Part shown: in pieces, positions 29,205 through 62,401 of the stretch
How positions within the stretch are numbered: the first letter of the stretch is position 1
How the letters are laid out: each line of letters begins with the position of its first letter
Origin: an uncultured Candidatus Melainabacteria bacterium
GTDB lineage: Bacteria > Cyanobacteriota > Vampirovibrionia > Gastranaerophilales > Gastranaerophilaceae
Reading direction: 5' to 3'
DNA: 64,000 nt
NCBI GenBank assembly: GCA_949915775.1
Contig: CATLEG010000001.1
Span: 13,292 to 77,291, forward strand
Translations under genes and position numbers: made by a program
The notes under the pieces: generated by a model
Told to the model about the DNA's origin: nothing
The model's database searches: none
What the model saw: only the letters and a program-made list of their open reading frames with translations

Positions 29205-29334
29205 TAATATTGCACTAATTGAGGTTTTGTATTAAAATTATTTTGCAGGGTAGCAGATGCCTCTTCAAAAGGAAAACTAACCGACACTTTTATATTGAAC
29301 CTCGGGTTGGTTCCCGACTAGAAAGGGGGCTGAT

Positions 29335-29415
29335 ATGGATAAATTCAATATTAGTCTATTGCTAATCTTTATGATTTTATTTGTATTAAAAAACGGCTCT
29401 CACTTAGAAAGATAA
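29335..29415 (+). CDS. Putative type I toxin peptide, locus 1 (26 aa)
   Basis: MDKFNISLLLIFMILFVLKNGSHLER; AAAGGGGG SD; promoter TTGCAC-17-TAAAAT; 90-nt structured leader. Confidence 0.65.
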   Translation: MDKFNISLLLIFMILFVLKNGSHLER

Positions 29416-29469
29416 GAACCGTTTGAACCTCTACAAGGCATCCGGCAGTCTGGAGAACTGCCACCCTGT
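29386..29469 (-). ncRNA. Putative antisense antitoxin RNA, locus 1
   Basis: Minus-strand TTGACA (29504-29499), 17 nt, AATAAT; terminator AAACGGTTCT/AGAGCCGTTT + U tract overlapping the toxin 3' end. Confidence 0.55.
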
Positions 29470-29560
29470 ATTTATATTATTTACTATTTTTGTAATTTTG
29501 TCAAGGGTATTTGAATATTTTTTGGCTTGCGATAAACTGTATTTATGGTATTATTACTTT

Positions 29561-60287: not shown

Positions 60288-60968
60288 ATGACAAAAATTC
60301 CTGACAAATCACCTGCTGTGATTCATACAATGTTTAATATGATTTCAAAAGAATATGATTTTTTAAACAATCTTATGTCTTTTGGAATACATCAAAATAT
60401 CAAGTTAAAATGTGTTCAAAGTCTTGATATTAAACCGCATGCAAACGTAATAGATTTATGCTGCGGTACAGGTGATATAGCAAGATTAATAAAAAAAGTT
60501 CAACCTCAATCTATAGTTACGGGAATTGATTTTTCCGAGAATATGCTTGAAATAGCGAAAAATAAAAGTGAGGGCATACAATATTTTCAAGGTGATGTGA
60601 CTAATCTTCCATATCCTGATGAAACTTTTGATATAGTTACAATGGGTTTTGGTTTAAGGAATATTCATAATGCTGAAAAAGCTGTTGAAGAAGTTTATAG
60701 AATTCTCAAACCAAACGGACTTTTTTTACATCTTGATTTTGGAGAAAAAAATTTTTTAAGTCATATTTTTGATATGGTTGTTCCATCTGCAATAAAATTA
60801 TTTACCGAAAATTCTCTTCCTTATAAATATTTAATAGAATCTAAAAAAGCTTTTCCAATACCTGCCGATTTGATAAAAGATTTTGAAAGCAAAGGATTTA
60901 AGTTAAATAAGCGTTTAGATTTTATCTCCGGTGTAATTTCTGCACAAATTATGGAAAAAAGGGGTTGA
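60288..60968 (+). CDS. UbiE/MenG-family methyltransferase
   Basis: YDFLNNLMSFGIH, DLCCGTGD, DFSENML, LPYPDETFDIVTMGFGLRN. Confidence 0.9.
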   Translation: MTKIPDKSPAVIHTMFNMISKEYDFLNNLMSFGIHQNIKLKCVQSLDIKPHANVIDLCCGTGDIARLIKKVQPQSIVTGIDFSENMLEIAKNKSEGIQYFQGDVTNLPYPDETFDIVTMGFGLRNIHNAEKAVEEVYRILKPNGLFLHLDFGEKNFLSHIFDMVVPSAIKLFTENSLPYKYLIESKKAFPIPADLIKDFESKGFKLNKRLDFISGVISAQIMEKRG

Positions 60969-60999
60969 AAAATTTTAAAAATAAGTTATAATGTATATA

Positions 61000-61108
61000 T
61001 AGGGAAAAGACTCTAAGAGGTCTCACTCTCTTAAAGTCTTTCTTAACTCCCTATTTGATGAATTTAAGTGCTATGATTATTGCTAAAATAAGCCATAGCG
61101 CTTTTTCT
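61000..61108 (+). ncRNA. Putative antisense antitoxin RNA, locus 2
   Basis: TTGAAA-16-TATAAT promoter (60965-60992); long 5' hairpin; terminator GCTATG..CATAGC + TTTTT overlapping the peptide gene. Confidence 0.6.
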
Positions 61109-61125
61109 GTTATCCAGAAATTCAT
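61051..61125 (-). CDS. Putative type I toxin peptide, locus 2 (24 aa)
   Basis: AAGGAGGTGA SD; MNFWITEKALWLILAIIIALKFIK; extended -10 TGA-TATAAT at 61212-61204. Confidence 0.72.
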   Translation of the reverse strand: MNFWITEKALWLILAIIIALKFIK

Positions 61126-61237
61126 TTTATCACCTCCTTCAACCGTCATTTTCCACTTAACAAGTCTGTGCCGGTGGAGATGGAGAGAGCTTACCCTGAA
61201 ATTATTATATCAAAAATATAATAAATATTATTAAAAT

Positions 61238-62038
61238 TTAAACATTTTTCAAAATTTCCAAAATTAATGTTTTGAATTTAACTTTGGCTGTGTTTGCGGA
61301 TTCAATAACTTCTTCATGTGAAAGTTTTTCGCCGTTTGAAGAGCTTGCAGCATTTGTAATACAGCTTATTCCTAAAACATTTATACCGCAATAATTTGCA
61401 ACAATTGCTTCCGGTACTGTTGACATTCCAACAGCATCACCGCCAAGTTTTCTTATCATTTTTATCTCTGCTGGTGTTTCATATGATGGTCCGGAATTAG
61501 CCCAGTACACACCTTTTTGAATCGAAATTTCTAATTTCTTTGCACAATTTTCTGCTAATTCAATGAGATTTTTTTTATAAACTTCTGACATATCAGGAAA
61601 TCTTTCACCCAGAGTTTCGTCATTTTCTCCGATTAATGGATTATTTCCGAGATTATTAATATGGTCAGTTATAATCATTAAATCAGCCGGTTTAAAACTT
61701 TCGTTAACTGCCCCTGCGGCATTAGTTAAAATAATAGTTTTCACACCCATTTTTTTCATAACTTTTATTGGATAAGTTATTTCTTGCAAAGAATGACCTT
61801 CATAAAAATGGTTTCTACCCTGCATCATCACAACTTTTTTTCCGCAAATTTCAGAAAATATAAGTCTGCCTTTGTGACCTTTTACAGTCGAAGTTATAAA
61901 ATTTGGAATATCGTTATAAGAAATTGCGTAATTACAGTATTCATCCGCAAGTTCACCTAGTCCGGAACCAAGTATAATTCCAATTTCAGGTACAAAATTA
62001 TTAGTTTTTTCTCTTAAAAAATTAATTGTATTTTCCAT
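61238..62038 (-). CDS. punA: Purine nucleoside phosphorylase (trimeric type)
   Basis: ILGSGLG, QGRNHFYEG, TNAAG, GPSYETPAE, AVGMSTVPE. Confidence 0.93.
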   Translation of the reverse strand: MENTINFLREKTNNFVPEIGIILGSGLGELADEYCNYAISYNDIPNFITSTVKGHKGRLIFSEICGKKVVMMQGRNHFYEGHSLQEITYPIKVMKKMGVKTIILTNAAGAVNESFKPADLMIITDHINNLGNNPLIGENDETLGERFPDMSEVYKKNLIELAENCAKKLEISIQKGVYWANSGPSYETPAEIKMIRKLGGDAVGMSTVPEAIVANYCGINVLGISCITNAASSSNGEKLSHEEVIESANTAKVKFKTLILEILKNV

Positions 62039-62158: not shown

Positions 62159-62401
62159 CTAACCGACTAATCTGTCATCATCAGCTTCCGCAGCTTTTAC
62201 CATAATGGCATGTTCTACCGGATTTTCTTTTTTATAAGTTGTGTCAAAATTTTCTTCAAATCCGAAATCATCATGTGCTTTTTTAGCTTGAGTTTCGTCT
62301 ACAAGTTTTTTTGCAAGTTCTGCAATTTCATAAACTAATTGATATCTGTTGTCTGTATTTTCATTTAAATCCCAGGCAACTCTTATAATTTGATCCATCA
62401 T
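62159..62401 (-). CDS. rpoZ: RNA polymerase omega subunit-like (cyanobacterial type)
   Basis: NRYQLVYEIAELAKK and NPVEHAI resemble the omega motifs (NRY.....A.RAK / KPV..AI). Confidence 0.55.
   Translation of the reverse strand: MMDQIIRVAWDLNENTDNRYQLVYEIAELAKKLVDETQAKKAHDDFGFEENFDTTYKKENPVEHAIMVKAAEADDDRLVG

Follow-up and report, generated by a model that had tools for sequence, protein, structure and literature searches.

Locus 2 lies in a metagenome-assembled genome of the Gastranaerophilales (Melainabacteria/Vampirovibrionia) of 2.04 Mb (143 contigs, 32.6 % GC). Positions are given in the window, which is the whole 64-kb stretch of DNA that was analysed. The locus 2 cassette (60965–61212) is a compact two-gene unit that occupies the entire 269-bp gap between two convergent genes, with a short peptide gene on the minus strand and a predicted antisense RNA gene on the plus strand. 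The features are:

60288–60968, plus strand: UbiE/COQ5-type methyltransferase gene (Pfam Ubie_methyltran), the left flank of locus 2
60965–60992, plus strand: antisense promoter TTGAAA-16-TATAAT, near consensus (11/12), the -35 of which overlaps the stop codon of the UbiE-like gene
60999–61111, plus strand: predicted antisense RNA of approximately 113 nt with two hairpins (5' hairpin domain, linker, second hairpin and U-run)
61042–61047, plus strand: antisense linker CUUAAC, partly single-stranded in the fold of the predicted antisense RNA
61066–61103, plus strand: second antisense hairpin, inside the ORF and followed by UUUUUCUGUU
61102–61111, plus strand: antisense U-run, inside the ORF
61212–61204, minus strand: extended -10 TGATATAAT of the peptide mRNA, from sequence and pattern match, with no recognisable or usable -35
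61198–61189, minus strand: conserved mRNA 5' end CAGGGTAAGC, the 5' strand of the 5'-3' clamp, from invariant columns in alignments A1 and A2
61182–61173, minus strand: anti-Shine–Dalgarno (anti-SD) CATCTCCACC, which pairs with the SD region in the MFE structure
61161–61156, minus strand: leader-loop motif GTTAAG, a direct repeat of a 3'-UTR motif, from co-variation over 31 loci
61139–61130, minus strand: perfect Shine–Dalgarno (SD) AAGGAGGTGA
61125–61051, minus strand: ORF of 24 codons plus stop encoding MNFWITEKALWLILAIIIALKFIK, with ATG at 61125 and TAG at 61053–61051
61053–61042, minus strand: stop codon and 3'-UTR linker TAGGGAGTTAAG, the 3' strand of the inner clamp in the fold, holding the second GTTAAG (61047–61042)
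61041–61006, minus strand: 3' hairpin of the mRNA (36 nt), a likely terminator and stabiliser from the fold, the complement of which is the 5' hairpin of the antisense RNA
61008–60998, minus strand: mRNA 3' end TTTTCCCTATA, with an invariant CCC that forms the outer clamp with the 5' GGG
61238–62038, minus strand: purine-nucleoside-phosphorylase-family gene (Pfam PNP_UDP_1), the right flank of locus 2

The remaining copies of the cassette in the same genome likewise adjoin housekeeping genes. In none of 80 relatives was a UbiE homologue present within 3 kb of the PNP gene, and in the three relatives whose loci were read for an empty-site comparison the sequence downstream of the PNP gene differed; hence, synteny gives no insertion boundaries. 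The PNP gene is also adjoined by an ORF for an acidic protein of 80 aa (62159–62401, minus strand), which had no Pfam match at E ≤1e-5.

The sequence-only reading had described an extended -10 and a CAGGGT-type start on the minus strand, an anti-SD ahead of a perfect SD and a hydrophobic ORF of 24 aa, and each of these was found. The CAGGGT at 61198–61193 places the predicted start of the mRNA near 61197, and the 3' hairpin is followed by UUUUCCCUAUA, which ends near 60998, giving a predicted length of approximately 200 nt. At the 5' end GGGTAAGC is invariant across the family in alignments A1 and A2, and the GGAGG of the SD is nearly invariant among family members; AAGGAGGTGA itself occurs only once in the whole window, with 0.06 copies expected by chance. 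The predicted fold of the mRNA (-61.5 kcal/mol, z -4.4) was not equalled in any of 200 shuffles, and in it the anti-SD holds the SD, the 5'-terminal AGGG is base-paired to CCCU at the 3' end and GCUCUCU of the 5' region to AGGGAGU around the stop codon. The long-distance pairing proposed earlier thus stands for AGGG with CCCU; CTCT does not pair with AGAG, which sits in an arm of the 3' hairpin. In the computed ensemble the probability that the SD is unpaired is 0.003 for locus 2 and averages 0.049 over the family, compared to 0.275 when the context is shuffled. Primary transcripts that are non-translatable because the SD is occluded have been called a hallmark of type I toxin–antitoxin loci (PMC6733600), and such a transcript is what the in silico structures predict here. 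A strict terminator scan called no canonical terminator on either strand of locus 2 and, hence, both of its terminators are non-canonical.

Downstream of the predicted start of the antisense RNA, two hairpins separated by the linker fold with -40.0 kcal/mol (z -6.8; none of 200 shuffles as good). The predicted RNA is fully complementary to the mRNA over its 3' UTR and the final two thirds of the ORF (codons ~6–24), so the antisense gene is on the 3' side, overlaps the ORF (61051–61125) and shares approximately 110 nt with the mRNA. A convergent promoter driving a two-hairpin RNA of about 110 nt, with its terminator in the ORF, had been anticipated and is borne out by the sequence, in the form of an 11/12 promoter and the predicted fold. 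At least 10 of 12 positions agree with the sigma-70 consensus in 31 of 32 family loci, a score equalled by just 1 % of 52-nt windows drawn at random from this genome, and the -10 ends 3–7 nt (mode 5) ahead of the GGG that is the complement of the terminal CCC of the mRNA. By sequence, the antisense promoter is the best-conserved promoter of the cassette, the sense promoters of the family being weaker and more variable. In type I systems, the antitoxin promoter is usually stronger than the toxin promoter. The antisense transcript was also considered as a coding RNA, and this was rejected as the 59-aa ORF on the plus strand (61055–61234) has no SD and runs beyond the predicted terminator. One antisense frame is free of stops over the span of the ORF in 22 of 31 loci, with no SD or conserved start seen, and is probably a by-product of codon composition.

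The peptide MNFWITEKALWLILAIIIALKFIK is hydrophobic (GRAVY 1.41) and flanked by lysines, with a net charge of +2. Its uncharged core of 12 residues is short for a membrane span, which counts against reading it as a toxin. The frame is conserved across the family, an open frame of 20–26 codons being present in all 31 parsed loci, though the parse demanded a short ORF and the coding test is therefore partly circular; frame +1 is open in none of the 31 and frame +2 in five. Over these loci, there are no stops in 747 codons of the ORF frame, and 188 and 36 in the other two frames. Four of the 35 pattern hits failed the parse and were set aside, and one of them, ahead of a kinase gene, is a true false positive. 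Among the 20 loci of type A, entropy at the three codon positions is 0.79, 0.61 and 0.98, i.e. highest at the third, and single-nucleotide codon differences are synonymous in 729 cases and non-synonymous in 570. From these patterns, the ORF of the family is most likely translated.

At least three types of peptide are found on the same RNA chassis, namely a purely hydrophobic type (xFSITEKALxLILLIILALK) that includes locus 2, an amphipathic type (MNRELIKKALAxLELLIKLI and relatives, hydrophobic moment 0.42) and a third represented by MDILIKLLLLVFAIIVASKI. The conserved (E/K)KAL and ALK residues are encoded, family-wide, by the arms of the antisense terminator stem and by the A-run opposite the U-tract (61066–61111 in the window). 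Peptide and RNA therefore constrain each other, and part of the conservation of the peptide is explained by constraints on the RNA. Searches with seven of the peptides found no Pfam family at E up to 10, and NCBIfam returned one chance-level TatA match only, so that no profile of a known type I toxin family (Hok/Gef, Fst, Ldr, TisB, Ibs and others) was matched. None of eight peptides (that of locus 2, its 32-aa upstream extension and six family members) was present in a collection of 15 billion proteins and, hence, the copies checked are unannotated.

The sequence-only reading had suggested scanning the genome for further loci with this leader and a short hydrophobic ORF. BLAST of the cassette against its own genome gave partial matches. 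Searching that genome for GGAGG ahead of a short hydrophobic ORF yielded six homologous copies and one locus of a second type, which has two members. The parts are in a common order, which is promoter, invariant GGGTAAGC 5' end, anti-SD/SD helix, ORF of 23–26 codons, 3' hairpin and terminal CCC, with a convergent TTGAAA/TTGACA-16/17-TATAAT promoter directly past the CCC. The leader pattern GGGTAAGC-N35-65-AAGGAGGT was found in 76 of 401 genomes of the order (approximately 120 sites; five hits for the reversed control). Outside the order it is at background, with seven hits against approximately 13 for the control in ~177 sampled genomes of the phylum, a sample that includes only three genomes of other Vampirovibrionia orders. 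A covariance model, R1, was built from the six paralogues. In the fetched loci it matched at 33 sites, one of which is truncated at a contig end while the other 32 span the whole model. At E ≤1e-5, it identified full-length copies in 193 of the 401 genomes and 37 of the 64 genera of the order, with E values down to 1e-41 and often six or more copies per genome, counts being capped at six. The sequence-only reading had suggested a lineage-specific family inserted between housekeeping genes; these counts agree with the former and the flanking genes with the latter. Tandem arrays of three or four cassettes with a period of approximately 275–330 nt are present in relatives (G083:C34:29934–31058, G194:C42:53–668 and G229:C26:2431–2828), the first consisting of four copies at a period of approximately 305 nt.

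In phage and plasmid sequences, blastn found short AT-rich promoter-like matches only. An exact-pattern scan of IMG/VR viral contigs gave more than 115 hits for the leader pattern, and none of the 80 listed matched the model; a stricter pattern gave four hits, and again none matched. As these non-exhaustive scans gave no link to plasmids or phages, a post-segregational role is unsupported. Rfam, which includes 13 type I antitoxin RNA families (PMC8594479), returned no match at the gathering threshold and, at E up to 10, only chance-level matches to unrelated eukaryotic families. A gene for RNase III is present in this genome.

Copies within this genome also share parts in different combinations. 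Two tandem copies ~750 bp apart at L005 (C3:10212–10408 and C3:10961–11161) have identical promoters and leaders and different peptides and 3' hairpins, and locus 2 has its 3' module in common with the copy on C59 (83 % identity) and its peptide type in common with that on C33. On sequence comparison this points to modular exchange of cassette parts. Two members from relatives look atypical: L102 has an ORF of 40 codons and the model match of L113 is approximately 100 nt longer than usual, and these may be decayed or insertion-bearing copies.

Conservation of the RNA structure was assessed over 31 non-redundant loci by comparing the pairing of each strand with its own partner and with partners from other loci. 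For all five pairings considered (the inner clamp, the anti-SD/SD helix, the SD flank alone, the 3' hairpin and the ORF-internal hairpin) own strands pair better than crossed ones, and none of 2000 permutations was as good; for the arms of the 3' hairpin the values are -16.0 kcal/mol (own) and -6.3 kcal/mol (cross). RNAalifold recovered only three pairs from A2, a 31-sequence MAFFT alignment, because MAFFT misaligns the diverged hairpins, and this analysis was replaced by the duplex tests and by a covariance-model-guided alignment, A3, on which pairs were counted. In A3, 87 % of cells hold standard pairs, compared to 76 % when shuffled and 44–52 % with slid partners, and both sides have changed in 24 of 38 pairs. 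Changes on both sides are seen in ten of the 11 pairs of the ORF-internal hairpin, the clamp column pair 11:328 is CG in 13 sequences and UA in ten, and the anti-SD/SD helix (helix 3) is 93 % paired in 33 sequences. Being fitted to the model, A3 leans towards structure, a bias of which the duplex tests are free. Taken together, these sequence comparisons indicate that the RNA structure of the cassette is under selection.

The leader-loop GTTAAG of locus 2 (61161–61156) is identical to the GTTAAG in the 3'-UTR linker (61047–61042), and in other loci the two motifs have changed jointly, to TGTGAAGAAA, AGTGAAGAA, AGTTACG, GTTATGA, GTTAAGCAG or TCGAAG. Over 31 loci, the longest word shared by leader and 3' UTR averages 6.45 for own pairs and 4.73 for permuted pairs (0/5000 permutations as good), and the predicted duplex between antisense linker and leader is likewise stronger for own pairs (-8.75 kcal/mol, compared to -6.60 kcal/mol permuted; 0/5000). 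Within the antisense RNA, no segment is less paired than the linker (0.57 unpaired, compared to 0.37 overall). Co-variation of the motifs is clear in 3' modules of the GGAGUUAAG type and weak in those of the GGGGCUUUUAAAG type. As the leader motif co-varies with that in the 3' UTR, a second docking site for the antisense RNA is suggested and, by analogy with par of pAD1 and SprA1, the leader motif is a candidate docking or seed site.

Locus 1 (29210–29504, plus strand) and a locus on C63 (~890–1100) of the same genome make up the second type of cassette and encode the peptides MDKFNISLLLIFMILFVLKNGSHLER and MDNFNLALFLIFLIIFIIKNDTHIK; the C63 member was recovered in the genome scan and locus 1 is its partner. 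This type has a CAGGGTA 5' end, an end clamp, which is predicted for locus 1 itself, and a convergent promoter just beyond the 3' end. The earlier proposal that loci 1 and 2 share a design is retained. That they form a single family is not, as neither locus 1 nor the C63 locus is detected by R1. On present sequences, they are analogous or very distantly related and not demonstrably homologous.

We conclude, with a probability of about 0.72, that locus 2 represents an order-specific cassette, present in multiple copies, that would act like a type I toxin–antitoxin module. The best reading of the family, from sequence, is that of a new lineage-specific type I toxin–antitoxin family, and we infer the roles of 'toxin' and 'antitoxin' from the predicted transcripts and peptide. 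A weak promoter would give an mRNA of approximately 200 nt in which the SD is buried by the upstream anti-SD and the 5' end is clamped near the stop codon and at the extreme 3' end. With this SD lock and end clamp, the primary mRNA would be translationally inert. A strong convergent promoter would supply an antisense RNA of approximately 113 nt which, in excess, would form a duplex of ~110 bp with the mRNA that RNase III could cut, removing the 3' stabiliser and destroying the coding region. The CUUAAC linker of the antisense RNA may also dock on the GUUAAG loop of the leader and thereby either keep the SD helix closed or start the pairing of the two RNAs. On loss of the antisense RNA, or on processing of the mRNA or its leader, the peptide would be made and could insert into the membrane and stop growth. 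More specifically, we propose tentatively, at a little short of even odds, that an order-wide, recombining RNA chassis (invariant GGGUAAGC 5' end, anti-SD lock, 5'-3' clamp and 3' antisense gene) carries at least three unrelated peptide cargoes and that a single antisense RNA acts on it at two sites, through the full 3' overlap and through an internal-loop motif that docks on its co-varying copy in the leader loop.

The same RNA and ORF features would fit equally well with an antisense-regulated gene for a small membrane or amphipathic peptide that is not a self-toxin, the RNA circuitry serving only to tune expression. Such a product could act on a transporter or sensor as a regulatory micro-protein, or its role could be ecological. 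In favour of this explanation are the short hydrophobic core and the chromosomal location of the copies, which adjoin housekeeping genes and were not found in the phage and plasmid sets. However, diverged copies occur several to a genome and in tandem arrays, unrelated types of peptide share one chassis, translation would be locked twice and the antisense promoter exceeds the sense promoter in strength. In combination, these features are characteristic of type I toxins and not of known regulatory micro-proteins (PMC6733600, PMC8594479), and we regard this explanation as unlikely.

Explanations that dispense with a functional ORF fare far worse. A non-coding repeated intergenic element, such as a MITE/REP-like unit or a bidirectional terminator module in which the ORF is incidental, would also be multi-copy, intergenic and hairpin-rich with complementary ends (GGG...CCC). 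Yet the terminal complementarity is merely 4–6 bp, promoters are conserved in position on both strands, and a near-invariant strong SD lies 4–10 nt ahead of a start codon; the frame is open in 31/31 parsed loci (the parse itself required one), with the third codon position most variable and synonymous differences in excess, which makes such an element highly improbable. A chance array of stretches that resemble promoters and hairpins in intergenic DNA of high AT content might be entertained for a genome of 32.6 % GC, in which promoter-like hexamers are common (seven sites in the region, compared to 3.5 expected). This is already refuted, and its probability is negligible, by full-length homologues in 193 genomes with E values as low as 1e-41 and by covariation in every helix. 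Since the cassette recurs and covaries in hundreds of genomes, locus 2 is more than a chance arrangement.

No publications linking type I systems to the Melainabacteria, Gastranaerophilales or Vampirovibrionia were found. According to a paper from 2025, type I systems are known only from the Proteobacteria, Firmicutes and Tenericutes, together with one 2025 candidate from the Cyanobacteria (PMC12390103), though their apparently narrow spread is itself debated (PMC5367252). If the reading as an order-wide chassis under two-site control is correct, the cassette would represent the first type I superfamily of the Melainabacteria and only the second candidate in the phylum, and part of the sequence of its peptide would be dictated by an antisense terminator on the opposite strand. 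As a type I module, the cassette would add a large family, present in about half of the sampled Gastranaerophilales genomes and often in six or more copies, in an uncultured lineage of the human and animal gut that is sister to the photosynthetic cyanobacteria. The family would also illustrate, within one small natural system, layered RNA control (SD lock, end clamp and two-site antisense), dual-strand coding constraint and modular exchange of peptide and RNA parts.

Among known systems, TxpA/RatA and its like and SprG/SprF have duplex-triggered decay by RNase III as the expected mode, and their toxins are roughly 30–59 aa long. The locus 2 peptide, at 24 aa, is shorter, and no sequence similarity to these systems was found in either peptide or RNA. 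Their hosts belong to the Bacillota, whereas that of locus 2 belongs to the Gastranaerophilales, and locus 2 adds the 5'-3' clamp and the co-varying leader motif. The features recovered from sequence are those of the type I class, i.e. an ORF for a hydrophobic peptide with an SD and a predicted complementary antisense gene. Antisense RNAs on the 3' side that overlap the ORF typify Gram-positive families (PMC8594479). Like the peptide of locus 2, the toxins of TxpA/RatA, BsrG/SR4, BsrE/SR5 and YonT/SR6 of Bacillus subtilis and of SprG/SprF of Staphylococcus aureus are small and hydrophobic. Their antisense RNAs are encoded convergently on the 3' side and cover the 3' UTR together with part of the ORF (PMC8594479), a layout also predicted for locus 2.

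The convergent RNAs of par of Enterococcus faecalis pAD1 (Fst, RNA I/RNA II) and of SprA1/SprA1as also have overlapping 3' ends, and in both the antitoxin is complementary to a 5' part of the toxin mRNA beyond the overlap (PMC8594479), which the identity of the leader and 3'-UTR GUUAAG motifs of locus 2 resembles. In par and SprA1, however, the antisense RNA lies clear of the ORF and its contact with the 5' part of the mRNA is over the translation start. At locus 2, the antisense RNA would overlap two thirds of the ORF, and the candidate site in the leader is a loop motif of only 5–10 nt, upstream of the SD; neither Pfam nor Rfam gave a match for locus 2. A long-distance 5'-3' fold, an occluded SD and an inert primary transcript, all predicted for locus 2, are shared with hok/Sok of plasmid R1 and aapA/IsoA of Helicobacter pylori (PMC6733600), to which no homology was found. 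There, an anti-SD at the 3' end sequesters the SD through the long-distance fold, and the target of the antisense RNA is in the 5' part of the mRNA, whereas the predicted anti-SD of locus 2 is local and upstream and its antisense RNA would target the 3' part. MsoT1/MsoA1 of Microcystis aeruginosa was reported as the first type I candidate in the Cyanobacteria, and MsoA1 is, like the predicted antitoxin of locus 2, a cis-encoded RNA with two hairpins, and it binds the coding region at its 3' end as well as the 3' UTR (PMC12390103). MsoT1 differs in its length of 63 aa, with two predicted membrane helices, and has relatives in photosynthetic cyanobacteria, whereas the peptides of the locus 2 family are 20–26 aa long. 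On sequence and predicted structure, the layout of locus 2 is closest to the 3'-overlapping Gram-positive systems, with the addition of a hok/aapA-like end clamp and a par-like second site.
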